The position numbers were made by a program, and so were the translations under genes. A stretch of 64,000 nt of DNA, taken from IMG/VR virus record IMGVR_UViG_3300017714_002439; one strand, 5' to 3'. Position 1 is the stretch's first letter; every line of letters starts with the position of its first letter. Shown piece by piece: positions 3,687 to 55,883 of this stretch. The DNA is from a virus. The notes under the pieces are model-generated. The model had not been told where the DNA came from and did no database searches. It worked only from the letters and a program-made list of their open reading frames with translations.

Positions 3687-4801
3687 AATTGCTCTGCTAA
3701 TTCAGGATTGTAATCTTCCAGCCGTGTTCCATACATACGATCTGATATTTTTATTAAATCAATAAATTCCTGCCATTTCTTTGGATTATACTTTCTTTCT
3801 TGGCGTCCTTGAAAGTAACTTCGAACTTCAGGACAATCGTTTGATTCTAATATCCACGCTTCATACCAATCTGGTGCATGACAAACACTAAGATCACCTT
3901 CTCCCCAATTACTAAATGTTTCAAGTTCGTTTTGTTTGAACCACTGTATAGTATCAGTATAATTATTTAAATTAAGCAACGTAAATGTATTTAAAAATGT
4001 AAACCAATTAATATTGTCAAACGTAGATTTTATTGTGTTTGCATTTTCAATAATAGTTTCAAAGTTACTGCCCCATCGTTGATAATCGTTGTATTTGTAA
4101 ATTCCATCACAGCTAATTATAAAATTTAATTCTTTTACACTGTGCATTATATCTAGGGTTTCTCCCTTGGGTAAAATAGTAGCATTAGTATTATATAGTA
4201 GACTTAAATTCTGCTTGTTTGGAAACTTCTTTAAGAATGGTAAATGATGTTTTGATAACAACGGTTCACCACCAACAAACTTAATTTGTTCTACATGACT
4301 TAGATCAAATTCATCAAGTAAATCTGGGTCAAACACCCAGGTTGGATGCACATTCTTACCTAACAATTGATCTCGACGCCGTAATTTAGTTGAATTAAAA
4401 CTGCTACACATCTTGCATTCTAGGTTGCATGTGTTGTCTAGACTTACTTCAATATACTTTGTATGGAAGAATTCTTGTGTTAAACTTTCTCTGGCTATAT
4501 CGTATGAATCATTTGCACTTGTTCGCATTGACTTTCCGTGTATTTTGTCATCTTCATAACAGTTTATACATCCTTTAACAGGTATTCCTGCCAGCATCTC
4601 ACTTCTAATTTGACGGAATGCACTTTGATTCATGCGTTCAAGCAACTGTTTGCCATCTTCAATTTCACTGTCATCTTGTCGCATGTTATCCCATTCTTCT
4701 TGATTGAATTTACAACACGGACTTACACCACCGGTTTGTCCATCATAACTTGGATCTAACCGTAAATGCACCCAAGGAAGACTACAAAAATAATTATTCA
4801 T
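3671..4801 (-). CDS. Radical SAM protein with N-terminal SPASM/Twitch-like Cys motif
   Basis: CNLECKMC (CxxxCxxC), FVGGEPLL, N-terminal C...PCC...CxxC. Confidence 0.85.
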   Translation of the reverse strand: MNNYFCSLPWVHLRLDPSYDGQTGGVSPCCKFNQEEWDNMRQDDSEIEDGKQLLERMNQSAFRQIRSEMLAGIPVKGCINCYEDDKIHGKSMRTSANDSYDIARESLTQEFFHTKYIEVSLDNTCNLECKMCSSFNSTKLRRRDQLLGKNVHPTWVFDPDLLDEFDLSHVEQIKFVGGEPLLSKHHLPFLKKFPNKQNLSLLYNTNATILPKGETLDIMHSVKELNFIISCDGIYKYNDYQRWGSNFETIIENANTIKSTFDNINWFTFLNTFTLLNLNNYTDTIQWFKQNELETFSNWGEGDLSVCHAPDWYEAWILESNDCPEVRSYFQGRQERKYNPKKWQEFIDLIKISDRMYGTRLEDYNPELAEQLKKAR

Positions 4802-4806
4802 ACTAA

Positions 4807-4814
4807 TATTTATA
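4807..4814 (-). promoter_or_regulatory. T4-type late promoter, leaderless spacing
   Basis: TATAAATA-N5-ATG on minus strand, no SD. Confidence 0.65.
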
Positions 4815-4815
4815 A

Positions 4816-4821
4816 TAAATA
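4816..4821 (+). promoter_or_regulatory. Late promoter, leaderless spacing
   Basis: TAAATA-N5-ATG(4827), no SD. Confidence 0.6.
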
Positions 4822-4826
4822 TTATT

Positions 4827-5546
4827 ATGTCAAAAATAGCATTTATAGGTGATAGTTTTTCTGCATATAAACAAGCAGGTCAATTTGAAAATCATTGGTC
4901 ATGGAAATTAGCACAAAAATATCCACAACATACATATATAAATTATGCCACGGGCGGAATAGGGCATAACTATTATCAGTATGCTTTACTTGATGCAAAA
5001 ATGAATGGAGTAGATATTGTATTTGTTAGCAGAACATACAACCATCGTGTAGGCTTTCTTATTAATGATTATGAATTCAAATTTAATAAAGAAGCTCTAA
5101 CAGATAATTACACACTAGCATGTCTACAAGGTGACAGGTATGTATATTATTGTGGTTCTTCTGTATCTGGTGCTAAACATTTTTTACAAAGGTCATCAAC
5201 ATTTTTAAATTTAAGTAAATCTTTAAATCAGAAAATAGTAGATATATTACAGAATAAGAGTGTTTCGTTAACTAGTCAACAATACAATGATAAATGGTTT
5301 GATAACATAAAGGATTTATATAATTTTAAACACATAATACCATTAGAACTAATGAATATCACAGACGATAATGCTTTTAAACAAATGGCATCAGCACATG
5401 GTGTTGATAATTGTGAAATTGATGCTGACATGTTTAACTCTGGATTAATAGTATCTTTAACTGATAATCATTTGTCTCCCAAAGGTAATGATTGGGTTCT
5501 AGAAAATTATATTTTGACACTTGACACTATTAAGATACTAGAATAA
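4827..5546 (+). CDS. SGNH/GDSL-hydrolase-like protein
   Basis: N-terminal FIGDSF and C-terminal DNH (DxH) motifs. Confidence 0.6.
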   Translation: MSKIAFIGDSFSAYKQAGQFENHWSWKLAQKYPQHTYINYATGGIGHNYYQYALLDAKMNGVDIVFVSRTYNHRVGFLINDYEFKFNKEALTDNYTLACLQGDRYVYYCGSSVSGAKHFLQRSSTFLNLSKSLNQKIVDILQNKSVSLTSQQYNDKWFDNIKDLYNFKHIIPLELMNITDDNAFKQMASAHGVDNCEIDADMFNSGLIVSLTDNHLSPKGNDWVLENYILTLDTIKILE

Positions 5547-5549
5547 ATA
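5544..5549 (+). promoter_or_regulatory. Late promoter, leaderless spacing
   Basis: TAAATA-N5-ATG(5555), no SD. Confidence 0.6.
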
Positions 5550-5554
5550 TTAAC

Positions 5555-5887
5555 ATGGAATTTATAATTAAAGCAATCATAGGTGGACTAATCGTTGCAG
5601 GAGTTGTTACAGCGGCTCAGCGTGGAAACCCTACACTAGGCGCTTTAATACTTGGCATACCACTAGGTAGTGTTATCAGTCTTATCTTTATGTATTACTC
5701 AGGAGTTGATGTTAAAACATTTCAACAACTAGCACAAGAAACAGTTTATTTTGTTTTAGTTAGTTTGGTATTCTTTCCATTATTTGTTATTACATTAAAT
5801 CACTGGAATTTTTGGATGGCAATGTTAAGCTCTATTTCAGTAACAATGGTTGCATTATTATTCCTAAAACATTTCTTAGAAGGTTAA
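5555..5887 (+). CDS. Small 4-TM membrane protein (DUF3147-like)
   Basis: Four hydrophobic segments; KAIIGGLIV...GALILGIPLGS pattern. Confidence 0.55.
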   Translation: MEFIIKAIIGGLIVAGVVTAAQRGNPTLGALILGIPLGSVISLIFMYYSGVDVKTFQQLAQETVYFVLVSLVFFPLFVITLNHWNFWMAMLSSISVTMVALLFLKHFLEG

Positions 5888-5895
5888 TAGATCAA

Positions 5896-5924
5896 TTGAC
5901 AACTAAACTAAACTGTAGTATACT
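5896..5924 (+). promoter_or_regulatory. sigma70 promoter, leaderless spacing to uvsW
   Basis: TTGACA-N17-TATACT-N6-ATG, no SD. Confidence 0.8.
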
Positions 5925-5930
5925 TGTAGT

Positions 5931-7385
5931 ATGAATTGTGCAATAGTAATAAAAGATGAAGTAAATTGTAAAATTGAAGGTCTCGACTTAAACACTAGAA
6001 AAAAATGCGAGAAAGAACTAAAGTTCTTTATGCCATATGCATTTCATGTGCCAGCATATAAGTTAGGTAGATGGGATGGGTGTGTAAGTTTTTTCAGTGT
6101 TGGTGGTGTTACTTATGTTAATCTACTTGATAGAGTCTTGCCCATTATTATGGATGCTGGATATCAAATCACAGTAGACGATAAGCGACAACAAAATGAA
6201 TCATTTGATTTTGCGGCTGTAGATGAATCTACATTTGCACATAAAGTTTGGCCAGATAATCATCAATTAGCAGGCGAGCCAGTTGTGCTTAGAGATTATC
6301 AGATTACTATTGTTAATAAATATTTAACCACACCACAATGTTTGCAAGAAATTGCCACAGGTGCAGGTAAGACACTTATCACAGCTGCTCTATCCGAACG
6401 TGTAGAAAAGTATGGAAGATCAATTGTTATTGTCCCAAACAAAGATTTGGTAAGGCAGACATTTGATGATTATGAAAACTTAGGACTTGACGTTGGAGTT
6501 TATTTTGGCGACAAAAAAGATATAGGACGCACCCATACAATATGCACATGGCAAAGTTTAAATAGTATCAAGAAAAGATTCAGAGATGGTCTAGACGATA
6601 TGAGTTTAAGAGAGTTTTCAGATGGAGTAGTTTGTGTTATTGTAGACGAAGTCCATCAAGCAAAAGCAGATGTTTTAAAAGACATGCTTACTAAGGAATT
6701 TGCACATATTCCTTTACGTTGGGGACTTACTGGAACTATACCAAAAGAAGATCATGCTAAAGCAAGTTTACAAGCATGTCTTGGAGAAGTTACAAATAAA
6801 TTAAGTGCAAGCGAATTACAAGACATGGGAGTTTTAAGTAACTGTCACGTTAATGTAGTTCAACTAAAAGAAACGGCGGTATACAATAATTATCAAAGTG
6901 AGTTAACTTACTTAACTACAGATAAAGAACGTATGAAGTATCTCAGTAGTTTTATTCAAACAGTTGCTGAAACAGGTAATACACTTGTATTAGTAGATAG
7001 AATTAAAGCAGGAGAAATAATTGCAGAAAATATACCAGATGTTACTTTTGTTAAAGGTGCTATGAAAGTCACCGACAGAAAGGACGCATATGATGAGATT
7101 AATGAAGCAACTAATAGCATCACTGTCGCAACCTACGGTGTGGCTGCCGTTGGTATTAATATTCCACGTATATTTAACCTTATACTTCTTGAACCTGGGA
7201 AGTCGTTTGTTAGAGTTATCCAGTCAATAGGACGTGGAGTTCGTAAAGCCGAAGATAAAGATTTTGTTCAAATTTGGGATGTGACAAGCACAGCCAAGTT
7301 CAGCAAAAAGCATCTTACAGAACGTAAGAAATTTTACAAAGAAGCTAATTATCCTTTTACTATTGAGAAGACTGATTGGCGTTAA
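5931..7385 (+). CDS. uvsW: UvsW-like SF2 DNA helicase
   Basis: LRDYQ Q-motif, ATGAGKT, DEVH, LTGT, QSIGRGVR. Confidence 0.9.
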   Translation: MNCAIVIKDEVNCKIEGLDLNTRKKCEKELKFFMPYAFHVPAYKLGRWDGCVSFFSVGGVTYVNLLDRVLPIIMDAGYQITVDDKRQQNESFDFAAVDESTFAHKVWPDNHQLAGEPVVLRDYQITIVNKYLTTPQCLQEIATGAGKTLITAALSERVEKYGRSIVIVPNKDLVRQTFDDYENLGLDVGVYFGDKKDIGRTHTICTWQSLNSIKKRFRDGLDDMSLREFSDGVVCVIVDEVHQAKADVLKDMLTKEFAHIPLRWGLTGTIPKEDHAKASLQACLGEVTNKLSASELQDMGVLSNCHVNVVQLKETAVYNNYQSELTYLTTDKERMKYLSSFIQTVAETGNTLVLVDRIKAGEIIAENIPDVTFVKGAMKVTDRKDAYDEINEATNSITVATYGVAAVGINIPRIFNLILLEPGKSFVRVIQSIGRGVRKAEDKDFVQIWDVTSTAKFSKKHLTERKKFYKEANYPFTIEKTDWR

Positions 7386-7398
7386 GAGAGAAATATAA

Positions 7399-10078: not shown

Positions 10079-10144
10079 TGTATATATATTTATTTTAAAT
10101 TTTTTCTGTGGTTTTTGCATAAATACATACACAGGAGAACATGA

Positions 10145-10978
10145 ATGTCAAATTACGCAACCACTTATAATATCAATCAAACAGGCGACCTTTACGCCGT
10201 TGATGCCACTAGTAGCAAAGCAGGACTAGGCAACTATGCTTCATCCACTGGCACTACTATAAACGCTCCTGTTAATTACAGGTTCTTAAAGCTATTTACC
10301 GGTTTAGATAATGAGTTCTTTTTTTACATTAAGAACATAGATCGTAAACCAATACAGTTGCAAGGACATACTATTACTGCTAATGTAGTTAATAGAGAAA
10401 CCCAGGCAAAATTATTATCAAAGAAATGTCAAATTGTTGACTATGATGAAGGCAAAGTTAAACTGGTTATTACATCCGGTGAAATGGCTGCAATTCAAAA
10501 CGGCTTCCTTGATCTAGTATTTACCTATGTAAATTCTCAAGGTTTAAATCTTCCATTATTTGTTGATCAAAATCTTAGACCAAATTATACAATAGAAGTA
10601 AGTAACCAAACACAAAGTATTCCACTACTATCAGCAGAAACAACTACATTTAATACTAGAGTAGAAGGAACAGACACATACTATTATAGTGGACACCTAC
10701 CAGGACCCGGTGCAAAAAACAAAGTTAATGGAATGGTTACTATAGCAGTATACACCACTAACTTTACAGGTAACTTTTTTATACAGGGTGCATTAGAAGA
10801 AAATCCAGCAGAATCCGATTGGTTTAACATTATATTAGGAACTTACACGGAAGAACATTACCCATATATCAATAGATCTGGAATTGATCCATGGACATTC
10901 AGAACTAATATTAAATATATTAGAGCAAGATTCACACAAACACAAGGAACACTTGACAAAGTCATCATAAGAGTGTAG
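10145..10978 (+). CDS. Probable virion structural protein
   Basis: TAAATA promoter and AGGAG SD; Thr/Asn/Gly-rich beta composition. Confidence 0.5.
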   Translation: MSNYATTYNINQTGDLYAVDATSSKAGLGNYASSTGTTINAPVNYRFLKLFTGLDNEFFFYIKNIDRKPIQLQGHTITANVVNRETQAKLLSKKCQIVDYDEGKVKLVITSGEMAAIQNGFLDLVFTYVNSQGLNLPLFVDQNLRPNYTIEVSNQTQSIPLLSAETTTFNTRVEGTDTYYYSGHLPGPGAKNKVNGMVTIAVYTTNFTGNFFIQGALEENPAESDWFNIILGTYTEEHYPYINRSGIDPWTFRTNIKYIRARFTQTQGTLDKVIIRV

Positions 10979-10981
10979 TAT
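10953..10981 (+). promoter_or_regulatory. sigma70 promoter embedded in upstream CDS, leaderless spacing to primase
   Basis: TTGACA-N17-TAGTAT-N6-ATG, no SD. Confidence 0.75.
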
Positions 10982-10987
10982 ATACAC

Positions 10988-11995
10988 ATGAGCTTAATGA
11001 TCGACTACGTTAGAAATCTGGTTCCGGTTAACTGGAAACAAAATCCAAGTGGCTGGACTTCTGGCAATTGTCCTATGTGTATAACAAATGGACAATCAAG
11101 ACCAGATACACGTGGACGAGGTGGTTTTCATTTTGAAGATGATAAGTTTCAATATCATTGTTTTAATTGTCATTATAAAACAGGGTTTTCGCCCGGTAAT
11201 AAAATTAATGATAGATTAAAAAAACTATTAGTGCAATTTGGTGCAGATCCTACACAAGTGCAACGTTTACAACTAGAGTTGTTGCGTGAACAAGATATTG
11301 CACAAACATTAATGGTGCAAGAGCGTAGAAAGAAACTAGTAATTGATTGGCCTACAGTAGCATTGCCAGACAATGCTAAACCTTTTATGGAACATACACC
11401 AACACCTGACTGGACAGAAGCAGTAACATATCTAACAGATAGAGGATTTGATATAACAGATCCTAGGCTGATGTATAGCCCTGCTAAATTGCCGGCTAGA
11501 ATGTTCAAACGTTTTGTAGTTCCATTTTATTATAAAGGTAATGTTGTAGGATATACAGCAAGATGGATAGGTAATCCACCAGATAAAATGCCAAAATATT
11601 TTAATCAACAACCACCTAAAAATTTTGTGTATGGGTTAGATAGACAGCATGCTGACAAAGAAATTGTTATATTGACAGAAGGCCCATTAGATGCTATAAT
11701 AACAGATGGAATCAGTGCAGGCACTAATACTATTAGCGATGAACAAGCAGACGTTATTTTAAGTTTAAACAAACAAATTGTTGTGTTACCTGATGCCGAT
11801 AAGGCAGGCATGCAAATGGTTAACGCAGCAGTTAAGTATGGTTGGAGTGTTGCATTTCCTGAATGGGATAATTGCAATGATGCCGGCGATGCCTTAACAA
11901 AATACGGTAGATTATTTACAGTGCGTAGTATATTAAATAGTGCAGTAAGTAACCCAACAAAAATACAAGTTTTAGGAAGGAATTATTGTAAATGA
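10988..11995 (+). CDS. DNA primase (gp61/DnaG-like)
   Basis: CPMC...CFNC Zn ribbon, TOPRIM TEGPLDA and PDADKAG. Confidence 0.9.
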   Translation: MSLMIDYVRNLVPVNWKQNPSGWTSGNCPMCITNGQSRPDTRGRGGFHFEDDKFQYHCFNCHYKTGFSPGNKINDRLKKLLVQFGADPTQVQRLQLELLREQDIAQTLMVQERRKKLVIDWPTVALPDNAKPFMEHTPTPDWTEAVTYLTDRGFDITDPRLMYSPAKLPARMFKRFVVPFYYKGNVVGYTARWIGNPPDKMPKYFNQQPPKNFVYGLDRQHADKEIVILTEGPLDAIITDGISAGTNTISDEQADVILSLNKQIVVLPDADKAGMQMVNAAVKYGWSVAFPEWDNCNDAGDALTKYGRLFTVRSILNSAVSNPTKIQVLGRNYCK

Positions 11996-13389
11996 GTGAA
12001 CAAAAAGAATACACACTAGAACTACAAAAATTATTTGTAGAGTTTTTGGCACATGATCAAGATTTATTTGTTCGTGTAAATGGTATATGTAATTCAGAAT
12101 ACTTTACAAGGGAATTACGTAAAACAGTAGAGTTCATTCAAGACCATGCAAACGAATATGGTGCATTACCAACACATGAGCAGATTGTAGCAACAACTGG
12201 GTTGGAATTACAAAGTTTAAAAGATATTGATCCTAGACATCACGATTGGTTTATAGACGAGTTTGAAACATTTTGTAAACATAAGGCATTAGAAAGTGCT
12301 ATATTAACTTCAACTGATTTACTTGAACAAGGTGAGTTTGGCGCAGTTGAGAAAATGATTAAAGATGCTGTAGGTATTGGACTTGCTAAACACATGGGAA
12401 CAGATTATTGGGAAAACCCAATGGAACGCATCGAACGTGTTCGTAACCAACGAGGTGGAACAAGCACAGGTTGGACTGAAATTGATAAAAAACTATATGG
12501 TGGATTTAATAGAGGCGAATTAAATATATTTGCTGCACCGTCAGGCGGTGGTAAGAGTTTATTTTTGCAGAACTTAGCATTAAACTGGGCATTAGAAGGA
12601 CATAATGTATTATATATTAGTTTAGAGCTTAGTGAAGAACTATGCAGTATGCGTCTTGATAGTATGTTAACAGGATACAACACAAAAGAAGTATTTAAAA
12701 ATGCAGAAGATGTTGGATTAAAAGTAGGAGCAATTAGTAAAAAAGCAGGCAACTTACAAATTGTGCAAATGCCTAATGGTGTAACAATAAATGATTTAAA
12801 TAGTTATATGAAAGAGTTTGAAGTAAAGAATAATGTTAAATTAGATGCAGTATTACTTGATTATTTAGACTTAATGATGCCAGCACAACGTAAAGTTCCG
12901 CCAAGTGACTTGTTTATTAAAGATAAATTTGTATCTGAAGAGTTACGTAACTTTGCAGTGGAAAAAGATTTGCTATTTGCAACCGCATCTCAGCTAAACA
13001 GAGCGGCAGTAGAAGAAGTAGAGTTTGATCACTCTCATATTGCAGGCGGTATTAGTAAAATTCAGACAGCTGATAACGTAATTGGTATTTTTACAAGCAC
13101 AGCAATGCGTGAACGTGGAAGATATCAAATTCAATTTATGAAAACACGTAGTAGTGCAGGTGTTGGACAAAAAGTTGATTTAGCATTTGATATTGCGGGC
13201 TTACGTATAACAGATCTGCCAGAAGATGAAGAACAAACACCTATGCATCAACCTAGTGCAATGATGGATAAAATAAAAAGAAATACAAATGTAACGCACC
13301 AAGAAAAAACTATTGCAGAAGAGAGCATTATTGAAGACACTGACGCTACCGACAGATTACGCAATATGTTGAAAAAAGTCAACAAATAA
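11992..13389 (+). CDS. Replicative DnaB/gp41-like helicase
   Basis: AAPSGGGKS, SLEL, LLDYLDL, TASQLNR, QFMKTR. Confidence 0.9.
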   Translation: MSEQKEYTLELQKLFVEFLAHDQDLFVRVNGICNSEYFTRELRKTVEFIQDHANEYGALPTHEQIVATTGLELQSLKDIDPRHHDWFIDEFETFCKHKALESAILTSTDLLEQGEFGAVEKMIKDAVGIGLAKHMGTDYWENPMERIERVRNQRGGTSTGWTEIDKKLYGGFNRGELNIFAAPSGGGKSLFLQNLALNWALEGHNVLYISLELSEELCSMRLDSMLTGYNTKEVFKNAEDVGLKVGAISKKAGNLQIVQMPNGVTINDLNSYMKEFEVKNNVKLDAVLLDYLDLMMPAQRKVPPSDLFIKDKFVSEELRNFAVEKDLLFATASQLNRAAVEEVEFDHSHIAGGISKIQTADNVIGIFTSTAMRERGRYQIQFMKTRSSAGVGQKVDLAFDIAGLRITDLPEDEEQTPMHQPSAMMDKIKRNTNVTHQEKTIAEESIIEDTDATDRLRNMLKKVNK

Positions 13390-13434
13390 CAGTAGAATAG
13401 ATAAATACAAGTAATAACAGTTGGAGTTGAGCTG

Positions 13435-13683
13435 ATGAAAAAAAGAACACGTAGTCTATTAGAAGAAATTAATAATCTATCACCTACAAAAGATAGAATT
13501 AATATACTAGAATCACGTGGCACTAATGCCATTAGTGCAATTATGAATGTATTAGAAATGGTAGATACAAATTATAGTTCAGAAGACGCTCAAGACATCC
13601 AAAAAAGAATAATGCTTAGTATTAAAAACAGAGATCCTGAACGTTTTAATAGAGGTATTAAGAATTTAAGGAATAAAAAATGA
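13435..13683 (+). CDS. Hypothetical protein
   Basis: TAAATA promoter, GGAG SD, coupled to next gene. Confidence 0.65.
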   Translation: MKKRTRSLLEEINNLSPTKDRINILESRGTNAISAIMNVLEMVDTNYSSEDAQDIQKRIMLSIKNRDPERFNRGIKNLRNKK

Positions 13684-23720: not shown

Positions 23721-23726
23721 ATAAGC

Positions 23727-24419
23727 ATGGCTGAATTAATCAAAATCTACGACTATAAAGAACTAAAGCGTCAAAGTGTAGACGGAAAGCGTCTATATGA
23801 AAATCCATATGGCGACCCAGTTCCAAGTGTCACAACAATTTTAGGTGCTACACAACCAGCAGAAAAGCGACAAGCATTAGCTAACTGGCGTAAACGTGTT
23901 GGAACAGAAGAAGCACAACGCATTACTACAACTGCCGCAAATCGTGGAACAGTTATGCACAATATATTAGAACATTGGGCATTGGGAGAATACGAAACAT
24001 ATAATCCTGGAAACAATATTGTTCATAGACAAGCCAAAGATATGGCACAAGTTGTTATTGAAAATATAGAAAATGATATTGATGAAATTTGGGGCACAGA
24101 AGTAAACTTATGTGCGGCAAATCTATATGCAGGAACAACAGATTTAGTTGGCATGTATAAAGGCAAGCCAACTATTATGGACTTTAAACAAACCAACAAA
24201 CCTAAAAAGCGTGAATGGATTGATGATTATTTCCTACAGGGTGCTGCATATGGATTAGCACACAACGAAATGTTTGGAACAGATATTAAGAATATTGCTA
24301 TTTTTATGTGCAGTGGAGATTGCGAATGGCAGTTGTTTGAGTCAGAAGAAGATGAATTTTCTTATTGGGCAACGCAATGGGCTAAAAGATTAGAGAAGTT
24401 TTATGGCATGTCTTCATAA
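23727..24419 (+). CDS. PD-(D/E)xK exonuclease (RecB/Cas4-like fold)
   Basis: PSVTTIL, GTVMH, YAGTTDL, IMDFKQ, QGAAY. Confidence 0.85.
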   Translation: MAELIKIYDYKELKRQSVDGKRLYENPYGDPVPSVTTILGATQPAEKRQALANWRKRVGTEEAQRITTTAANRGTVMHNILEHWALGEYETYNPGNNIVHRQAKDMAQVVIENIENDIDEIWGTEVNLCAANLYAGTTDLVGMYKGKPTIMDFKQTNKPKKREWIDDYFLQGAAYGLAHNEMFGTDIKNIAIFMCSGDCEWQLFESEEDEFSYWATQWAKRLEKFYGMSS

Positions 24420-24447
24420 ATACAGTATATAGAAACGAGGAACAATT

Positions 24448-25218
24448 ATGGCAATAACAACAAAAGTATCGCAGATTATTATTAGAAAAGATAACGCCTC
24501 TGCAATTCCTACTTTAGGAGCAGGCGAATTTATGCTTGCGGAAGATGAACAAAGACTTTTTCTAGGACAAGCACCAGTAACAGGTGTTGTAGAAAGTTCA
24601 ACCACTACTAATGCAAGTGTATCATTTGCAGTTCCAATTGGTGGAATCTCTACTCCGTTATATCTAAGTAATTTAGCAGACTATTCAATTGTTGTAACCA
24701 AAGCCGCAGATTCCTCAACAACTACAATTGCATCAAATAACGTAACAGTAAGTGATGCAGATGGAGAAGGTAGCAACCCACCAATTTATACATTTGCTCA
24801 TGGACTAGGCGGAGCAGTTGCAGGTGGTGACACATTTGTATTGCATTACAATAAAGAAATAACAAGTTCACCAACAGACGACAGAGTTAAAAGAAATACT
24901 ATAAAATTTACTAACACTGGCAATCAAACTGAAACAACAGGTATTAATTTTTCTAGTGCTGTTGTAAATGATATTAGTATTGATTATGCATTGTTTAATG
25001 CAACACATATGCGTAAAGGAACATTAAGTGTTCTAGTTAATGGAAATACAGCCAGTAATATTGAAGACAAGTTTTTTGGCGACAATGAACTAACTGATGT
25101 TGAATTTTCACTAACAAATAATGGATCAGGAACATTTACATTAAAATTTAAGACAGCATTAACTACTGAATTACAATTTAACTATACACAGACTGCATCA
25201 AAGTTCGTTACAACGTAA
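24448..25218 (+). CDS. Tail fibre/baseplate-associated structural protein
   Basis: QIIIRK...PTLGAGEF...RLFLG N-terminal motif of tail-fibre proteins; TAAATA promoter and GAGG SD. Confidence 0.6.
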   Translation: MAITTKVSQIIIRKDNASAIPTLGAGEFMLAEDEQRLFLGQAPVTGVVESSTTTNASVSFAVPIGGISTPLYLSNLADYSIVVTKAADSSTTTIASNNVTVSDADGEGSNPPIYTFAHGLGGAVAGGDTFVLHYNKEITSSPTDDRVKRNTIKFTNTGNQTETTGINFSSAVVNDISIDYALFNATHMRKGTLSVLVNGNTASNIEDKFFGDNELTDVEFSLTNNGSGTFTLKFKTALTTELQFNYTQTASKFVTT

Positions 25219-32543: not shown

Positions 32544-32550
32544 AAACTCA

Positions 32551-32576
32551 AACCCTGCCATAGTGCAGGGTTTTTT
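32551..32576 (+). terminator. Intrinsic terminator after tRNAs
   Basis: AACCCTGC/GCAGGGTT stem plus T tract. Confidence 0.85.
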
Positions 32577-32584
32577 ATTATAGG

Positions 32585-32590
32585 TAAATA
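32585..32590 (+). promoter_or_regulatory. Late promoter, leaderless spacing
   Basis: TAAATA-N5-ATG(32596). Confidence 0.6.
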
Positions 32591-32595
32591 TTAAT

Positions 32596-33528
32596 ATGAA
32601 CATAGCAATATATCAAACAGTAAACGCACATGCACCAGCAATTCACTGGTGGCTTGCAAATGATTCAAGATTTGGACCTCAAATATATTTGGGAAAAGAT
32701 CCACTCAGAGACACTCCTACTACAAAAGATGTTATAGGAACTATTGTTCAAGAAATGAGAAATCCAAGCAGCGAATCCATTACAGAAGAACTTTATGAAA
32801 TCCATCAAGAGTCATTGAGAAAAATGGAAAACCTACAAACTGACACTGGAGTATCATATTGCACAAAGGAATATTTTGAATATGGTAAAACTTTTGAATA
32901 TCCGGTTTGGAGTAATTATTTTGGAAATACTAAAAATAAAACTGCCTCGCCATATTGTGATAAACTTATTTTTGCTAAGTCTAAAAAAGGCGAAGATCCT
33001 ATGTTCTATATAACGCAATATGCATACCAAGGATTTTTTGGAGTGAAGGATGTTAAATCACATAGTGAATTATGGTGGAAAGATCATATGTTCATGGATG
33101 GAAATACTGTAGGTTATGGTATGACTGAAAAATGGAAAGAAATATGGTATGCAAAATACGAAGATCAATGCATACAAGATTTCCATGATGGCAAACTAAA
33201 ATATATGTGGCAACTAAACCAATCTCATTGGGATTTGTTTCATTGTTTACTAGAAGGCAAAGAAAGTATTATACTTGACTATAGTGAAGAAAAATTGTTG
33301 GCACGTTGTGATGATACACAAGTATTAGTAAATCAAGCTAATAGATTAAACGCATTACCAGAAAATTCATTAGTTGTTGAAATAGACTGGTATGAAAATC
33401 CTAATATTATCCTTGATTATTTAGAGGTAAGCAATAGCCCTGAATTAACATCAGCAGTTGCTTTATACAAAGAACGATTTCTCAAAGTTCGAGAAGCATA
33501 CAACAAAAAATTTAACGCCAGCGTTTAA
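32596..33528 (+). CDS. Hypothetical protein (Trp/Tyr-rich, possible sulfotransferase-like fold)
   Basis: Intact 310-aa ORF; fold guess weak. Confidence 0.6.
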   Translation: MNIAIYQTVNAHAPAIHWWLANDSRFGPQIYLGKDPLRDTPTTKDVIGTIVQEMRNPSSESITEELYEIHQESLRKMENLQTDTGVSYCTKEYFEYGKTFEYPVWSNYFGNTKNKTASPYCDKLIFAKSKKGEDPMFYITQYAYQGFFGVKDVKSHSELWWKDHMFMDGNTVGYGMTEKWKEIWYAKYEDQCIQDFHDGKLKYMWQLNQSHWDLFHCLLEGKESIILDYSEEKLLARCDDTQVLVNQANRLNALPENSLVVEIDWYENPNIILDYLEVSNSPELTSAVALYKERFLKVREAYNKKFNASV

Positions 33529-35975: not shown

Positions 35976-35976
35976 C

Positions 35977-43655: not shown

Positions 43656-43698
43656 ATTATATAATAAGGTTGACAATTTGTCAAGATCTACTTATAAT
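43656..43698. promoter_or_regulatory. Interlocked divergent consensus sigma70 promoters
   Basis: TTGACA-N17-TATAAT on both strands around the TTGACAATTTGTCAA palindrome. Confidence 0.85.
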
Positions 43699-43735
43699 AA
43701 ATAAAGTAGTAATCATATTTATACACGGAGAAACA

Positions 43736-45285: not shown

Positions 45286-45331
45286 TTTTTTTTGAGCAAA
45301 TTTTTTTTTGAATAACAAAAAGGAAAAGAAA

Positions 45332-46162
45332 ATGACGCAACTCATAAACCCACAAAAATTTACAGATACAGTTGGCCTTTTAAGGTCATTTTTTTTGGCT
45401 AAAGGATTTTTAGAAGTCCACACCCAAAATAGATTAAGCATATTAGCGGCTTGCGAAGATCCGTTTAATGTAGCAACATACAATTACGCAGGCCAAGTAT
45501 GGCCGTTGCCCCAAACAGGCCAAATGTGGTTAGAACACGAATTATTAAGTAGCCCCGATAGTAAGGGGTTTTTTTGTGTCTCCACGTCCTACAGACAAGA
45601 ACCAAACGCAATACCAGGCAGACATGATATAATATTTCCAATGTTTGAATTTGAAATGCCAGGTAGTGTAGATGATCTAAAAGCAATGGAGTATGAACTA
45701 TGTGAATACTTAGGCTTTGGTAACATTACAGAAAAGACTTATGCTGAATGGCAACAACACTTTGGACTAAGTGCTGATACAGAAATGGAAGCAGAACACG
45801 AACTTGCAATGGAAAAAGAGTTTGGACAAACACTTATTACAAACTTCCCTGAACTAACATCACCTTTCTGGAACATGGCAAGAAACGATGACGGCAACAC
45901 AGCAAAGAAGATGGATGTTATACTAGGTGGTATGGAAACTATTGGATCAGCAGAACGCAGTTGTAATGTTGATACGATGAGAGATACATTTCATAGTATT
46001 ACAGACGGTGCTTACTCAAAACTACTATTTGAATTATTTGGCAAAGATAGAGTAGAGGCAGAACTTGAAAAGTTTTTAGAGTTTGATTTCTTTCAAAGAG
46101 TTGGCGGAGGCATAGGTGTAACACGTATGATTCCTGCACTAGAAAAAATTAACAAAATCTAG
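45332..46162 (+). CDS. Class II aaRS catalytic-domain paralog (AsnA/AS-AR-like amino acid-ammonia ligase)
   Basis: Motif 2 SYRQE...RH, motif 3 GGGIGVTR, ETIGSAER; no anticodon-binding domain. Confidence 0.75.
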   Translation: MTQLINPQKFTDTVGLLRSFFLAKGFLEVHTQNRLSILAACEDPFNVATYNYAGQVWPLPQTGQMWLEHELLSSPDSKGFFCVSTSYRQEPNAIPGRHDIIFPMFEFEMPGSVDDLKAMEYELCEYLGFGNITEKTYAEWQQHFGLSADTEMEAEHELAMEKEFGQTLITNFPELTSPFWNMARNDDGNTAKKMDVILGGMETIGSAERSCNVDTMRDTFHSITDGAYSKLLFELFGKDRVEAELEKFLEFDFFQRVGGGIGVTRMIPALEKINKI

Positions 46163-46168
46163 AAAGCA

Positions 46169-47441: not shown

Positions 47442-47447
47442 TAAATA
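47442..47447 (+). promoter_or_regulatory. Late promoter, leaderless spacing
   Basis: TAAATA-N5-ATG(47453). Confidence 0.6.
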
Positions 47448-47452
47448 GCATT

Positions 47453-47950
47453 ATGGACATATATAAAAAAGACAAAGCAGTAAGCGTAGCACTTTCGATA
47501 GCCTTAATATTGCTAGTAGCCTGCCTGTCTTGTATGGTTTATTCATATGTTAAATTACAACAATCACATCCATTAGAAAACTTACGTGGCGCAATACTAC
47601 AACCAGTTTATGATGGAGATCCAGTTTTAGAGTTTCAAGGCACTTACGATAGATATGTAAAATGTAATATGACTGGATTTGATGTTCATTTATACAATAA
47701 AGAAACCGCTGATATCATTACATTAACACCAGTTCATTTAGCAAAACCAGTTCCAGTAATACCTGAACCAGCAGAAGGTATAAAAACAGAATTTGCATTA
47801 TTCATGCCAAAAACAATATACCCAGGAACATGGAAACCTTCATTTACAGGTTTTTATATATGTCAATTAGGTATATTTGTAGATCAAAAAGTTCAAAAAG
47901 TTGAACCAGAAGCTTTTATAATCAAAAGCAACACTACCACAAAACAATAG
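47453..47950 (+). CDS. Membrane-anchored hypothetical protein
   Basis: N-terminal TM; two Cys in a beta-rich domain. Confidence 0.65.
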   Translation: MDIYKKDKAVSVALSIALILLVACLSCMVYSYVKLQQSHPLENLRGAILQPVYDGDPVLEFQGTYDRYVKCNMTGFDVHLYNKETADIITLTPVHLAKPVPVIPEPAEGIKTEFALFMPKTIYPGTWKPSFTGFYICQLGIFVDQKVQKVEPEAFIIKSNTTTKQ

Positions 47951-48200: not shown

Positions 48201-48390
48201 AGACACATGTAGTATATGCGATAGTCCTTATGACGAGGATGCAGGTGGGATACAAGGATACTTTGGTATAATGCCAGTTACATTTTGTGAATGGTGTTAT
48301 AGTAGTATCTATGACATGCTTTATAAAGAAGTAGAAGAACATTACAAGGATAATCAAGAACCAGAACCTTGTGGAATGAGTAGAAAATAA
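48169..48390 (+). CDS. Small Zn-ribbon-like protein
   Basis: CSIC...FCEWC; GGAG SD. Confidence 0.55.
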   Translation: MTNLQTQLQPKDTCSICDSPYDEDAGGIQGYFGIMPVTFCEWCYSSIYDMLYKEVEEHYKDNQEPEPCGMSRK

Positions 48391-48398
48391 ATACTTAT

Positions 48399-48578
48399 AT
48401 GTTATACTTAATACTATTTTTCTGTGGAATACTTTTTACAATGGCTGTTGTATCAATTTGGATGCATGAAAAATCATATGATATACCAAAAATTCCTACT
48501 ACTTTATCAGAAGAAAAAGTAGATCAACTAAAATACAGAATATACAAGGCACAGCAAAGATTACAACAAAATAAATAG
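48399..48578 (+). CDS. 59-aa membrane protein (not in ORF track), leaderless
   Basis: TAAATA(48388-48393)-N5-ATG; N-terminal TM. Confidence 0.55.
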   Translation: MLYLILFFCGILFTMAVVSIWMHEKSYDIPKIPTTLSEEKVDQLKYRIYKAQQRLQQNK

Positions 48579-48582
48579 TTGT

Positions 48583-49548
48583 ATGTTATATAAACGCATA
48601 CACACAATCCAATTTGATTTAAATGTTATATGTAATGCATTCTGCCCAGGATGCCATAGATACGCAGTAGTAGATGATGAAATGTATCTCAATCCATATC
48701 TACCATTTAATACTAGTGTAGATTTAAGCATTGTAGAACGTGTAATGGAAAATACTAGGTTAATTGATAACGTAGTAATTGATATGGTTGGGTTAGTAGG
48801 TGAGCCAATTGCACACAATGAGTTTTTAGATATAGTTGATATCATATATGGGCATAAACCTAATGCACGTATACACATTCACACAAATGGTGGATTACGC
48901 TCAGTAGAATTTTTCAAAGAACTTGCACATAAGTTAAATCATCAATCGTGGATTATATTCTCAATTGATGGATTAGCGGATACAAATCACAAATATAGAA
49001 TTGGAGTTATATGGGAAAAGGTAATGGAAAATGCAAAAGCATACATAGATGCAGGAGGAAAAGCAATATGGAAGTCTTTAGATTTTCCGTGGAATAGTCA
49101 CCAAAAAGAAGATATGCAATCATTATCAATTGATATGGGATTTAAAGGTTTTAGGTGGGAGAAAAATAGAGATGCTAATACTAAATGGATGGAAAAGTGG
49201 GTAAAAGCTGCAGAAAAGTTTAATCAAAAAACAAAAGCAAAACTAGGATACAAACAAGTATTATATCAACAACACTTTAATAGTATAAAAAATAGATGCT
49301 TTGATGATGAAGCAATTTACATAAATTATCAAGGTAAAGTTTTGCCATGTTGTATGTTTAATGCATCATTAACAGATGAGTCATATATGGACGAAATGAA
49401 ACCCTATATTAATGAAAATAATGAGAATTGGAACAGTTTAGAGCACAATACACTAGAAAATGTGATGAATAATAAATGGTGGCACAAGCTGTATGGCCAT
49501 TTAGATACTAAACCATGCAGTGTTTGTATCCATGCCTGTGATACATAA
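48583..49548 (+). CDS. Radical SAM protein with C-terminal SPASM/Twitch
   Basis: CNAFCPGC, GEPIAH, HTNGG, C..IYIN..G...PCC..CSVC; TAAATA(48572-48577)-N5-ATG. Confidence 0.88.
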   Translation: MLYKRIHTIQFDLNVICNAFCPGCHRYAVVDDEMYLNPYLPFNTSVDLSIVERVMENTRLIDNVVIDMVGLVGEPIAHNEFLDIVDIIYGHKPNARIHIHTNGGLRSVEFFKELAHKLNHQSWIIFSIDGLADTNHKYRIGVIWEKVMENAKAYIDAGGKAIWKSLDFPWNSHQKEDMQSLSIDMGFKGFRWEKNRDANTKWMEKWVKAAEKFNQKTKAKLGYKQVLYQQHFNSIKNRCFDDEAIYINYQGKVLPCCMFNASLTDESYMDEMKPYINENNENWNSLEHNTLENVMNNKWWHKLYGHLDTKPCSVCIHACDT

Positions 49549-51745: not shown

Positions 51746-52255
51746 ATGATGATAACAAGTGCAAAGATGTTTGCAACGGCGGCTCATGCCGCAGTAGGGC
51801 AAAAACGTAAATACTCAGGTGATGATTACATTGTTCATCCAGAGCGAGTTGCGGCTATTGTAGAAAAGCACGGCGGAACAGATGAAATGATTGCCGCGGC
51901 TTGGTTACATGACACTGTAGAAGATACAGATGTTACACCTATTCTTATTACTAAAATGTTTGGTGTTGATGTTGCAGATATCGTTGAAGGTCTTACTGAT
52001 ATTAGTTTACCTAGTGATGGTAATAGAGCAAAGCGTAAGTCAATTGATCGTATGCACAGTGCAAGGGCTTCAACTGAATCACAGTTTGTAAAATGTGCAG
52101 ACATTATTGATAACAGTTGGGATATCGCTGATAACGATCCTAGTTTTGCAAAAGTATACAAATCAGAAGTATTTCTTTTGTTACACGCAATGACAAAAGT
52201 AAAGCATACAGAAATTTGGGAACAAGCAATGAAAAGCGTAGAGTTAATGCCTTAA
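51746..52255 (+). CDS. RelA/SpoT-type HD hydrolase (small alarmone hydrolase/Mesh1-like)
   Basis: AH..GQKRK.SG..YIVHP..VA, AAWLHDTVED, VKCAD..DN. Confidence 0.8.
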   Translation: MMITSAKMFATAAHAAVGQKRKYSGDDYIVHPERVAAIVEKHGGTDEMIAAAWLHDTVEDTDVTPILITKMFGVDVADIVEGLTDISLPSDGNRAKRKSIDRMHSARASTESQFVKCADIIDNSWDIADNDPSFAKVYKSEVFLLLHAMTKVKHTEIWEQAMKSVELMP

Positions 52256-52277
52256 TTGGCATTAACTAAATACTGTT

Positions 52278-53282
52278 ATGCTTTATAAAGAAATTGATAC
52301 TGTTGAATTTGATCTCAATACAGTATGTAACAGTTATTGTCCCCCTTGCCATAGATATACAATTCAAGACGGTGAGCTATTTCATAACCCATATGTAAAA
52401 CTAGGCGTTAATTTAGAATTAGATGTAATTGAGAAAGTATTCTGTAATGAACGTTTAGCAGATGATTGTTTTGTTGATCTAGTAGGACTTGTAGGTGAAC
52501 CAATTGCACATCCAAAGTTTATGGAAATAGTAGATATTATTTACAAACATAGACCAAACGCAGCAATTAACTTACATACAAATGGTGGATTACGAACTGA
52601 AAAAATGTTCTATGACTTAGGTAAAAAGTTTAACAAACACAGTTGGATTAAATTTTCATTAGATGGACTAGAAGATACAAACGGTATATATCGTATTGGA
52701 GTAGATTACCATAAAGTAATAAGAAATATGCGAGCATTTATAGATGGTGGTGGACGAGCAATATGGAAGTTTGTTACATTTGAATGGAATAAACATCAAG
52801 TAGAAGAAGCAAAAGCGTTATCAGAAGAATATGGCTGTTCTAAATTCCAACAAGATTGGGATGTCAATGATATGAGTATAAAGCAATATATGAAAGCAGC
52901 TAACACAAAAATTAATTATAAGGTTCAGGCTACCAAAGGTGATAATAGATTTCCTAATTTACCTGATAGAACATCTTATAAGATTGTAGATAGATGTTTT
53001 ACATATAAAAAGATATATGTAAATGCACATGGTTATGTTATTCCATGTTGTATGTTTAATGGTGCAATGACATATGATTCTATGCGTAATCAAACACTAA
53101 ATTTTATTAAAGAAGATAGAGCTGAATATTGGAATAGTTTATATCATAACGATTTAGAAACTATAATGAGTGATACATGGTGGCAAAAATTAAACGATAG
53201 TTTTAATGGTAATGCATGTGATATATGTATTGAACAATGTGGCAAGAATAACATTCCAAAAAACGAACGCTATTTTGATTGA
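52278..53282 (+). CDS. Radical SAM protein, paralog of 48583..49548
   Basis: CNSYCPPC, GEPIAH, HTNGG; TAAATA(52267-52272)-N5-ATG. Confidence 0.88.
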   Translation: MLYKEIDTVEFDLNTVCNSYCPPCHRYTIQDGELFHNPYVKLGVNLELDVIEKVFCNERLADDCFVDLVGLVGEPIAHPKFMEIVDIIYKHRPNAAINLHTNGGLRTEKMFYDLGKKFNKHSWIKFSLDGLEDTNGIYRIGVDYHKVIRNMRAFIDGGGRAIWKFVTFEWNKHQVEEAKALSEEYGCSKFQQDWDVNDMSIKQYMKAANTKINYKVQATKGDNRFPNLPDRTSYKIVDRCFTYKKIYVNAHGYVIPCCMFNGAMTYDSMRNQTLNFIKEDRAEYWNSLYHNDLETIMSDTWWQKLNDSFNGNACDICIEQCGKNNIPKNERYFD

Positions 53283-53578: not shown

Positions 53579-54410
53579 TAAGCAAGAATTATTAGATAAG
53601 CAAGATAAGGCCGAACTTGCATTAGAAAAATCACAGGCACTAGAAACAAAGTTTGCTGACAGATTTGATATGGCAAAGTCTTTGTTTGCAGTATTAGATA
53701 AACAAAAGTTTATTGAATGCAACGATATTGATCCAACTGATCCATATAAAATTGAACCATGGAAAGACGAAGATGTTCCAGAAAAAAGTTTTGCATTTAA
53801 GCATGCAGGACCTGTATTTGGATTTGACATTGATACTATGGTTGGACCAGAAAGCTGGTATAACGAACAAAGTGGAGTAGATGATTATGTGTTGCGTAGA
53901 AAATGTTACATATATGATTGGACAGCAGAAAAACTGAAAGAAGATTTTCCAGAACTAACATACTTCACAGACCTACATAAAGAATTTGTTCCTGTATTGC
54001 AACATTATTATAATGAATGTTTTGAAGATCAACATGCAGATGTTTCTAAAAGATTACATAAACTCATGGTTATTGAATATTCACATCCTACTGCAAATGC
54101 GGGTAATATTATAGATCATAAAAAACATAATACAGAACGTTTTGGTGATATACATTGTGACGAAACATTAGGTGGATTACATTTAGGAGAAAATGTAGTA
54201 GAGTTTTATATTGAAAATCATTTAACAAATGAACGTAAAAGTGTAGATGGATTATCCAATAATAACACACTTTGGTTTTTTGGTGAATTTAGTGAACGTA
54301 GCGGGTGGCAACCAAGTATGCACGGTATGGCTCATAATAAAAACGATAATACTTGGAAAAGATACAGTATAATTTTTGATCTACAAGCTCGATACAAAGG
54401 AGAAGAGTAA
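53571..54410 (+). CDS. 2OG-Fe(II) oxygenase-like protein (IPNS-like motif spacing)
   Basis: IHCD (HxD), MHG, KRYSIIF (RxS). Confidence 0.55.
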   Translation: MYSKQELLDKQDKAELALEKSQALETKFADRFDMAKSLFAVLDKQKFIECNDIDPTDPYKIEPWKDEDVPEKSFAFKHAGPVFGFDIDTMVGPESWYNEQSGVDDYVLRRKCYIYDWTAEKLKEDFPELTYFTDLHKEFVPVLQHYYNECFEDQHADVSKRLHKLMVIEYSHPTANAGNIIDHKKHNTERFGDIHCDETLGGLHLGENVVEFYIENHLTNERKSVDGLSNNNTLWFFGEFSERSGWQPSMHGMAHNKNDNTWKRYSIIFDLQARYKGEE

Positions 54411-54559
54411 TGTTTGAAGTAATCTATATCCCACGAATTCATGATGAAGTTGCGGTAGCACGATTCTCATCGGAAGAAGAAGCTGAAGCCTATATGGAAA
54501 AAATTAAAGTGGAACGCCCAAAAGCATACCCACATCATTATATAAAAGAAGGAGAGTAG
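54410..54559 (+). CDS. 49-aa hypothetical protein (not in ORF track)
   Basis: TAATG overlap, AAGGAG SD upstream; its 3' end carries the clpP SD. Confidence 0.55.
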
Positions 54560-54560
54560 T

Positions 54561-55151
54561 ATGGCATTGGTACCAATGGTGGTCGAACAGACCGGACGAG
54601 GAGAACGCAGTTACGATATTTACAGTAGACTATTAAAAGATCGTATTGTGATGTTAACTGGAGAAGTAAACGACATGACAGCAAATTTAGTTGTTGCACA
54701 AATGTTGTTTTTAGAATCACAAAATAGCAGTGAAGATATTAACTTTTACATTAATAGCCCAGGTGGCGGAGTTACAGCCGGACTTGGAATTTATGATACA
54801 ATGCAGTTTATTAAATCTCCTGTAAGCACAATTGTAATGGGTCAAGCATGTAGCATGGGCAGTTTCCTTGCTATGGCAGGTGAGCCTGGTAAACGTTTTG
54901 TATTGCCAAATAGTAGAACAATGATTCACCAACCAAGTGGTGGTGCAGGTGGACAAGCAACTGACATGGAAATACAAGTTCAAGAAATTCTTAAAATTAA
55001 AAAGAATCTTACAGACATTTATGTTAAACATAACAGTGCTGGAAAAACATTTGATGAACTAGCACAAGCAATGGAACGTGATAACTTTATGAGCGCCAAT
55101 GAAGCAGTAGAATTTGGTTTAGCTGATAAAGTAGTTATTAGAAAAACATAA
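54561..55151 (+). CDS. clpP: ATP-dependent Clp protease proteolytic subunit
   Basis: [24 protein letters not shown] (Ser), MIHQP (His), MERD (Asp). Confidence 0.97.
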
Positions 55152-55174
55152 AATATATCATATTAGCAATTAAG

Positions 55175-55182
55175 TATAAATA
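55175..55182 (+). promoter_or_regulatory. T4-type late promoter, leaderless spacing
   Basis: TATAAATA-N5-ATG(55188). Confidence 0.65.
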
Positions 55183-55187
55183 CTAAT

Positions 55188-55883
55188 ATGAAAATACATG
55201 ATATCTTAGAACAGATGATGGACGAAGGTCCAAATGATCCAGCTATATTTAAAGCAGTATTTCTTGCTGGTGGTCCTGGATCTGGTAAAAGTTATGTGGC
55301 AAGTAAAATTCTTTCAGGTTTAGGTCTCAAGCCAGTAAACAGTGATGACATCTACGAATACCTAGCTGACAAACAAGGTATTGATTTAGGAGATCCAGAT
55401 GCAGTTGCTAGTGATAGAGGACAAGAACTCAGAAACAAAGCCAAAGAATTAACTAATAAAAGACAAAATGTATACATAGACGGTCGTATTGGATTAATTA
55501 TTGATGGCACAGGTAAAGATGTGCAAAAGGTAAAAGAACAAAGTTTAATACTAAAAAATCTAGGATATGAATGTATAATGTTATTTGTAAACACAAATCT
55601 AGATGTTGCACAAAAACGTAATTTAGAAAGACCACGCAAACTGAAACCAGAAATGGTTGATAATATGTGGCGTAAAGTTCAAGAAAATATTATGAAGTTC
55701 CAACAGGTATTTGGCGCCAGTAACTTTCACGTTGTTGATAATAGCGGAGGGTTAGAGGACCCTGAACGTAAAGAAAACTTTGACAATGTATACAAGAAAG
55801 TTAGAGCGTTTATTTCATCTCCACCAGCTAGTCATACCGCTAAAAAGTGGTTAGATGACGCTAAAAGTAAAAATACCACTTAA
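55188..55883 (+). CDS. P-loop kinase (AAA_33/zeta-toxin/PNK-like)
   Basis: FLAGGPGSGKS, VNSDD, IIDGTG, RN..R.R. Confidence 0.8.
   Translation: MKIHDILEQMMDEGPNDPAIFKAVFLAGGPGSGKSYVASKILSGLGLKPVNSDDIYEYLADKQGIDLGDPDAVASDRGQELRNKAKELTNKRQNVYIDGRIGLIIDGTGKDVQKVKEQSLILKNLGYECIMLFVNTNLDVAQKRNLERPRKLKPEMVDNMWRKVQENIMKFQQVFGASNFHVVDNSGGLEDPERKENFDNVYKKVRAFISSPPASHTAKKWLDDAKSKNTT

Follow-up and report, generated by a model that had tools for sequence, protein, structure and literature searches.

The late apparatus of phage T4 comprises the sigma factor gp55, gp33 and the gp45 clamp, and in the numbering adopted in a review of T4 late promoters the first T of the late box, TATAAATA, is −13 and the box spans −13 to −6 (PMC2988020). 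Boxes of this type are also present in a wider group of giant phages. Phage CBB carries the motif ATAAATA before its structural genes and encodes a gp55-like sigma factor, with no gp33 or gp45 homologues found, and ATAAATA is likewise predicted before the structural genes of GAP32; the report describes the motif together with an AT-rich downstream region and mentions neither a fixed spacing to the start codon nor a leaderless class (PMC5259590). Leaderless late transcripts, in turn, are known from the Thermus phages phiYS40 and Lalka27a, where the first nucleotide of most transcripts, late ones among them, is also the first of the start codon (A or G), a modified host RNA polymerase (RNAP) being presumed to recognize the promoters (bioRxiv 10.64898/2026.04.20.719267). 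Here we analyze a stretch of viral DNA of 64,000 nucleotides (nt), IMG/VR record IMGVR_UViG_3300017714_002439 (the whole stretch is hereafter called the window), in which the T4-type late box TAAATA stands exactly 5 nt before the ATG of nine genes without a Shine-Dalgarno (SD) sequence. This layout, TAAATA-N5-ATG (hereafter the N5 layout), recurs in related marine phages and probably marks late promoters that give rise to leaderless mRNAs.

The likeness to T4 late promoters includes the TAAATA core, the lack of a −35 element, the AT-rich downstream region, the position before virion and packaging genes and the presence of a gp55 homologue in the clade. The two differ in the bases that precede the hexamer, which are G or A followed by A here and T followed by A in T4, where A is found at −13 at nine sites. 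The Thermus phages are set apart by a TAGGGT −10 element and by a host lineage rich in leaderless mRNAs; furthermore, nearly all of their genes are leaderless, whereas here the layout is found at 6–9% of the genes, beside strong SD-led genes. In the genome-wide signature of leaderless expression, seen for example in mycobacteria, start codons lack an SD sequence and are preceded by a −10 box at a constant, short spacing. Such bacterial and archaeal signatures employ the box of the housekeeping sigma factor, whereas a signature of this kind appears twice in the present phages, once with a putative late sigma box (N5) and once with a sigma70-type box (N6). The combination of a gp55-type box at a strict N5 spacing, in 6–9% of the genes, with a parallel N6 class of the sigma70 type was not found in T4, in the papers on PA5oct (see below) or in the searchable literature, in which no paper contains both TATAAATA and the word “leaderless”.

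The window, its relatives and the sequences compared

The nearest cultured relative of this uncultured marine giant phage is the Pseudomonas jumbo phage PA5oct (Arenbergviridae), with a DnaB-like helicase that is 51% identical to that of the window and a matching gene order around the helicase gene. The resemblance extends to the synteny of the primase, helicase, virion and ribonucleotide reductase genes, to the motif R-A-TAAATA (R, G or A) before structural genes, and to the possession of a gp55-like sigma factor and of ribosomal protein bS21. Papers on PA5oct name giant phages such as GAP32 and RaK2 among its relatives; its published promoter analysis includes sigma70-type promoters only, and the word “leaderless” is absent from that paper (PMC7318152).

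A megablast search with 25 kb of the window against a phage collection gave no match, and the relatives were reached by protein search, which also recovered hundreds of IMG/VR contigs that belong to the clade; a search of sequencing runs showed that the DNA of the window recurs in many marine metagenomes. The genome-wide spacing analysis was run on the window and on four relatives, namely G001, a 67.9-kb contig collinear with the window at 85–94% identity, the more distant marine contigs G002 (217 kb) and G005 (92 kb), and the complete genome of PA5oct as the fourth comparison sequence. The window has a G+C content of 34% and, according to the listing of open reading frames (ORFs), is coding almost entirely on the + strand; its genes include those for a primase, a DnaB-like helicase, virion proteins, both ribonucleotide reductase subunits and several radical SAM proteins.

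A single spacing peak between TAAATA and ATG

The hexamer TAAATA occurs 101 times in the window, and the exact pattern TAAATA-N5-ATG has 13 matches (12 on the + strand and 1 on the − strand), compared with a mean of 3.33 and a maximum of 7 in shuffled sequences (13 or more in 0 of 100 shuffles). The first-pass annotation had named a flat distribution of distances, driven by AT richness, as the outcome that would speak against a promoter class, and had proposed a histogram of the distance from TAAATA to the start. This histogram has a single sharp peak: on the + strand, a distance of 5 nt accounts for 12 matches and each of the other distances from 0 to 40 for 0–6, and a peak at 5 is also seen in G001 (15 matches), G002 (18) and G005 (14). 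Pattern counts of 13, 17 and 13 stand against 0, 5 and 0 in a reversed-pattern control. At called gene starts, the layout is found 9 times in the window, 8 in G001, 11 in G002 and 12 in G005, which corresponds to 9 of the 98 window genes (~9%) and to 6.5% of the genes in three marine genomes. When all hexamers at all distances were scanned upstream of 489 called genes from three genomes, TAAATA at distance 5 ranked first (32 observed vs. 0.3 expected), with the SD hexamer AGGAGA lower, at 14 occurrences for distance 5 and 11 for distance 6. The peak is restricted to ATG, with none at distance 5 for GTG or TTG.

All nine ORFs that had been listed as beginning 5 nt after TAAATA are present, each starts at its first ATG, and in each the 11 nt upstream of the start consist of the box and an AT-rich N5, that is, the SD sequence is indeed missing. 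None of the nine contains an in-frame downstream start with an SD box. Among the other matches, 23238 heads an ORF of 11 codons, and 31412 heads an ORF of 4 codons and, with A at −1, violates the pyrimidine rule described below and is deemed spurious. Match 12808 (module 12797-12810) falls on an in-frame internal Met of the DnaB-like helicase and would yield a 193-amino-acid (aa) C-terminal product, and match 16851 (module 16840-16853) on an in-frame internal Met of the gene 16695-17162, with a would-be product of 103 aa. T precedes the ATG in both, and both are preserved in close relatives; either coding constraint or internal late starts could be responsible.

The spacing is not entirely rigid. 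TAAATA-N6-ATG is found at six genes of G002 and at one gene of G005, and one of the six belongs to an orthologue family that uses N5 elsewhere; accordingly, the spacing to the start site tolerates 5 or 6 nt. The G002 examples (L106-L116) are 141308, 128140, 20275, 121062, 108217 and 157868.

Beyond the close relatives, the signal fades. In PA5oct, there is no N5 peak for TAAATA (15 matches vs. a background of ~11) and a weak one for ATAAATA, and the only called gene with the layout is that for the structural protein gp262. T4 yields 4 matches to box-N5-ATG vs. 2 in the control, which is not an excess. In contigs with 68–77% helicase identity, no N5 peak is seen within 20 kb around the helicase gene, and the sites there mostly represent one orthologous gene.

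An extended consensus and a conserved module

The 40 sites from four genomes align to the consensus R(−13) A(−12) TAAATA N T A N Y ATG. Every one of them starts with ATG and is preceded at −1 by a pyrimidine, which holds for 258 of the 555 other genes (Fisher p = 4.5e-13). Bacterial transcription usually starts at a purine that follows a pyrimidine. Among the 39 unique sites, TAAATA is invariant, A is present at −12 in 30 and G or A at −13 in 32; the position table of these sites shows nothing conserved between −40 and −15, that is, no −35 element.

Between the window and G001, none of 42 hexamer positions and 2 of 35 N5 positions have changed, with differences of 40% in the upstream flank and 19% in the first coding bases, so that the 14 bp of the module have changed less than the sequence on either side. 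In distant orthologue families, the hexamer and the spacing are retained and the N5 is variable. Furthermore, only 6–10 nt separate the end of an intrinsic terminator from the box at 32596, at four G001 and G002 sites and in orthologues of the gene 5555, which leaves no room for another promoter or for a leader. The junction terminator-ATGACA-TAAATA is identical in the gene of G001 for the SGNH-like protein (see below) and in the orthologues of 5555.

The nine modules of the window

The nine genes encode three radical SAM enzymes, a P-loop kinase-like protein, small hydrophobic proteins and two proteins of unknown function. The module 4799..4812 (−) heads the radical SAM gene 3671-4801(−), which lies in a cassette, 3690-4814, that the window has and G001 does not. 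It is paired with the module 4816..4829 (+), which heads 4827-5546 and retains its place in the G001 orthologue, with an intrinsic terminator in front; the sequence 4799-4829 bears out the divergent promoter pair that had been proposed at 4802-4826, with the two boxes 3 bp apart. The 239-aa product of 4827-5546, annotated earlier as SGNH-like, has an N-terminal GDS motif as the sole feature behind that label and no match in Pfam or PHROG, in contrast to the three radical SAM proteins and the kinase-like protein, whose assignments agree with these databases.

The module 5544..5557 (+) heads 5555-5887, which encodes a 110-aa hydrophobic protein, and the gene upstream ends with the TAA of its box. 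Four orthologues of this gene (in L002, L004, L010 and L021) keep the hexamer and the spacing, with a terminator in front, and the L019 orthologue has no TAAATA, with the SD box AAGGAAG in its place. As far as can be judged from such comparisons, orthologues switch between the predicted leaderless mode and the SD mode.

At 32585, TAAATA precedes by 5 nt the ATG of 32596-33528 (+). The whole element, 32550..32598, is conserved in G001 and includes an intrinsic terminator (32550-32573 followed by a T-run), a strong bidirectional hairpin that adjoins the late box and lies downstream of the genes for tRNA-Thr(TGT) (32280-32355) and tRNA-Ala(TGC) (32468-32543). The module 47442..47455 (+), which heads 47453-47950 (165 aa), is conserved in G001, where the upstream flank has diverged. 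Two modules are found in close succession further downstream. The first, 48388..48401 (+), heads a 59-aa ORF (48399-48578) in the window-only cassette 48391-48556, and the TAA of its box doubles as the stop codon of the preceding gene; the second, 48572..48585 (+), heads the radical SAM/SPASM gene 48583-49548 and is overlapped by a TAG stop codon. The Radical_SAM match of the product of 48583 begins at residue 16 and thereby excludes a later start; in G001 the module is retained although the N-terminus of the orthologue has diverged. The other radical SAM/SPASM gene, 52278-53282, follows the module 52267..52280 (+), and in two of the radical SAM proteins the cluster motif CxxxCxxC starts at residue 17. 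The ninth module, 55177..55190 (+), heads the P-loop kinase-like gene 55188-55883 (Zeta_toxin/AAA_33).

A hairpin with a 9-bp stem and no T-run, at 52243-52266, reaches exactly to the late box of the gene 52278. G001 has kept it, and it might serve in regulation or processing.

Leadered copies of the box and a gp55-like sigma factor

The same box is found farther upstream of virion genes. At 10120..10147 (+), TAAATA is followed by a 19-nt leader with AGGAG and by the virion gene 10145-10978; at 13402..13437 (+), by a 27-nt leader with GGAG and the virion gene 13435-13683; and at 24417..24450 (+), by a 25-nt leader with GAGG and the gene 24448-25218. A further copy lies 38 nt before 19383, which like 10145 and 13435 matches a PHROG virion family. 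These leaders agree with the first-pass annotation, which had described longer, mostly SD-bearing leaders at the four genes; an SD box is present at three. The hexamer is invariant among orthologues of 10145 down to 45% identity (leaders of 18–25 nt) and among those of 13435 down to ~35% identity (leaders of 18–33 nt). In both families the leader varies in sequence and in length and GGAG or AGGA is always kept; the box is conserved independently of the ribosome-binding site and therefore behaves in a promoter-like manner, as expected.

In the marine genomes and PA5oct, leadered sites (distance 14–45) and leaderless sites alike have the G/A-A extension at −13 and −12. Among the leadered ones, T is over-represented at the fifth and A at the sixth base after the box, and many of them carry TA at distances 4–5. 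Intragenic copies of TAAATA show neither the G/A-A extension nor an enrichment at distances 5 and 6. In PA5oct, the box is located upstream of many genes whose products mass spectrometry has confirmed as structural. The invariance of the hexamer upstream of virion genes, together with the extension common to the two layouts, upholds the earlier identification of TAAATA as a T4-type late promoter box. The box precedes the gene for the large terminase subunit in G002 and PHROG virion-family genes in the window, and the late role is assigned by position only.

A gp55-like protein is encoded by PA5oct (NC_071039, 70801-71583) and by G003 (35551-36360), with E values of 4e-18 and 1.5e-22, respectively, for phrog_234 and of ~1e-83 for phrog_12791, and is present in at least 583 related IMG/VR contigs. 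The proteins of the clade are 280–289 aa long, compared with 185 aa in T4, and only about residues 39–160 of the T4-family profile are matched.

TAAATA was also considered as a −10 box of the sigma70 type. This candidate was rejected: there is no conserved T at the last position of the hexamer, and the spacing to ATG peaks at one base less than in the sigma70-type class described below.

Probable leaderless late promoters and the alternative explanations

What the sequences show is a motif with strict spacing and marked conservation, a consensus common to both layouts, modules of the type terminator-box-ATG, and a gp55-like gene in the clade; this is best accounted for if the TAAATA-N5-ATG sites are gp55-type late promoters that produce leaderless mRNAs. 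To this interpretation, which is drawn from sequence comparison, we assign a probability of roughly 0.7. R-A-TAAATA would be the late promoter of the clade, read by the host RNAP carrying the phage gp55-like sigma factor. It would be used in two layouts, one with the box 18–35 nt upstream of a gene with an SD leader and the other with the box exactly 5 nt, rarely 6, before the ATG. The T4 late-promoter geometry quoted in the first-pass annotation is correct (PMC2988020), and a box at −13 to −6 followed by N5 therefore places +1 on the A of the ATG. In the second layout, the gp55-RNAP complex would thus start late transcripts at the A of the start codon, and the resulting mRNA, beginning with 5′-AUG, would be translated from its terminal AUG without an SD box.

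Several observations weigh against this scheme. The 64-kb window and the G001, G002 and G005 fragments contain no gp55-like gene, and we infer its presence in this phage from the clade. A search for a gp45-type clamp (phrog_223) detected nothing in the complete PA5oct genome or in four marine contigs and was silent in every control genome as well; this hints, weakly, that the system is not the full T4 late apparatus. PA5oct has both the box and the sigma factor and yet a single gene with the leaderless layout, so that possession of the box need not lead to leaderless use. The four runs examined for RNA evidence gave short contigs of low depth that are unable to show 5′ ends. Some contigs from RNA runs bridge 52278 and 55188, which could reflect read-through RNA or DNA carry-over, and one, which may also be carry-over, arrives from upstream and ends at 55188.

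Contigs that span 52278 and 55188, be they RNA or DNA, would be compatible with TAAATA-N5 being instead a translation signal on longer polycistronic transcripts, either an AU-rich non-SD site for the ribosome or S1 or a site of termination-reinitiation. AU-rich upstream regions aid initiation, and at 5544 and 48388 the upstream gene ends with the TAA of the box, whereas at 48572 a TAG stop codon overlaps it. We nevertheless consider this unlikely, given that R-A-TAAATA is equally conserved where it lies 18–33 nt ahead of SD-led genes, that modules stand directly behind terminators or, in the divergent pair, have no upstream gene on the same strand, that the promoters of another class, of the sigma70 type, have the equivalent spacing (N6), and that the clade possesses a gp55-like sigma factor whose T4 homologue reads this very box. 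Slightly less probable still is a promoter that is not strictly leaderless, with transcription starting 1–4 nt before the ATG or within the codon, which would result in a short leader or in the use of a downstream start. The N6 genes in G002 and G005, the family that alternates between 5 and 6, and the TA at distances 4–5 in many leadered sites imply that the start may wobble by one base; the sharp peak at 5 and the combination of a pyrimidine at −1 with A at +1 in 40 of 40 sites argue for a fixed one. A downstream start is further opposed by the lack of in-frame starts with an SD box and by the CxxxCxxC motif that is already reached at residue 17. Moreover, an mRNA with at most 3 nt ahead of its start codon behaves like a leaderless one.

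The module could instead mainly be a recombination junction for the exchange of cassettes, similar to the promoter/stem-loop cassettes of T4-type phages, with a spacing that is inherited rather than selected. Two of the three window-only insertions relative to G001 are indeed bounded by TAAATA boxes, and one terminator-ATGACA-TAAATA junction is common to the G001 gene for the SGNH-like protein and the 5555 orthologues. Against this, unrelated genes in genomes that are 55–60% identical keep the hexamer and the spacing and differ in the N5, which indicates selection at each site, and the pyrimidine rule at −1 and the consensus shared with leadered promoters are features of expression. A role in recombination, improbable as the main function, is in any case compatible with leaderless late promoters and does not replace them. 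Finally, a coincidence that arises from AT richness and from the way start codons are called, for which the G+C content and the abundance of TAAATA in the window might be invoked, can be regarded as refuted by the shuffles, by the single peak of the histogram and by the excess over expectation in the 489 genes; PA5oct and T4, of similar AT content, lack the peak.

Gene content of the predicted leaderless class and accessory cassettes

The first-pass annotation also divided late expression into a leadered tier of structural genes and a leaderless tier of accessory genes. This division does not survive comparison with the relatives, where the N5 layout heads terminase and virion genes. It is found before the gene for the large terminase subunit in G002 (176700; 55% identical to PA5oct gp280), before that for a virion protein in G005 (87860; matching PA5oct gp278) and before that for PA5oct gp262 (ATG at position 144985 of NC_071039), a structural protein detected in virions by mass spectrometry. 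By synteny, the window gene that corresponds in position to gp262 is 10145, which is SD-led.

The bias toward accessory genes in the window may have another source. The insertions present in the window and missing from G001 are 3690-4814 (with the radical SAM gene), 45257-46166 and 48391-48556 (with the 59-aa ORF), and the first and the last of these are bounded by TAAATA boxes. Few as these cases are, cassettes appear to be gained or lost at the boxes, which provides an alternative account of the bias.

A connection between the leaderless class and the translation factors encoded by these phages was considered as well. The window encodes a two-domain IF3 (59559-60077) and ribosomal protein bS21 (60085-60348). 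Among the sequences compared, IF3 was detected in the window and G001 only, and bS21 is also encoded by G002, by G005 and by PA5oct, which lacks the class; this connection was rejected.

A more inclusive scenario would combine several of these elements, although we regard it as doubtful. In this large clade of uncultured marine giant phages, the gp55-type late promoter would have become a combined start of transcription and translation of 14–17 bp, which together with a terminator would make up a portable cassette for the late expression of acquired genes that have no ribosome-binding site. Repeats would mediate the gain and loss of accessory genes, mRNAs free of GGAG would escape enzymes that cut SD sequences, and a different response to phage IF3 and bS21 would turn the leaderless mRNAs into a separate late translational channel.

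A parallel sigma70-type class

A second class of sites combines a sigma70-type promoter, TTGACA-N17-TAnnnT, with a spacing peak at N6 before ATG and a pyrimidine at −1. The helicase gene 5931-7385 is headed by TTGACA-N17-TATACT-N6-ATG at 5896..5933 (+), and further sites lie at 10953-10990, before the primase gene, and at 23692-23729 and 43684-43647(−), before other genes of the window; the N6 peak recurs in G001 and G002. An N6 spacing is the geometry expected of a hexamer at −12 to −7 and is therefore equivalent to the N5 of the late box. This class has the look of an early or middle leaderless class beside the putative late one.

At 43656-43703, two perfect 12/12 sigma70 consensus promoters are divergent and overlap, and the −10 box of the + strand promoter overlaps a TAAATA late box by one base. 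This arrangement suggests that one operon is under both early and late control.

Implications for gene calling and late expression

If the mRNAs are leaderless, the sites described here would be the first class of gp55 late promoters in which the box also fixes the start of translation. No other upstream signal in these genomes is as strong as the N5 layout. In these marine giant phages, a very common group with hundreds of IMG/VR contigs, gene-calling programs guided by ribosome-binding sites will overlook such starts or put them in the wrong place. PA5oct is in culture and has one N5 gene, that for gp262, so that the prediction is directly checkable. The terminator-box-ATG modules that bound strain-specific cassettes, moreover, suggest how accessory genes, the scattered radical SAM enzymes among them, join the late programme.

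Other genes of the window

The window also encodes ClpP (54561-55151) and ClpX (58358-59557). In addition, the gene 34995-35975 encodes an OpuAC-type glycine-betaine-binding protein (Pfam E value 4e-37), an unusual auxiliary gene for a phage.

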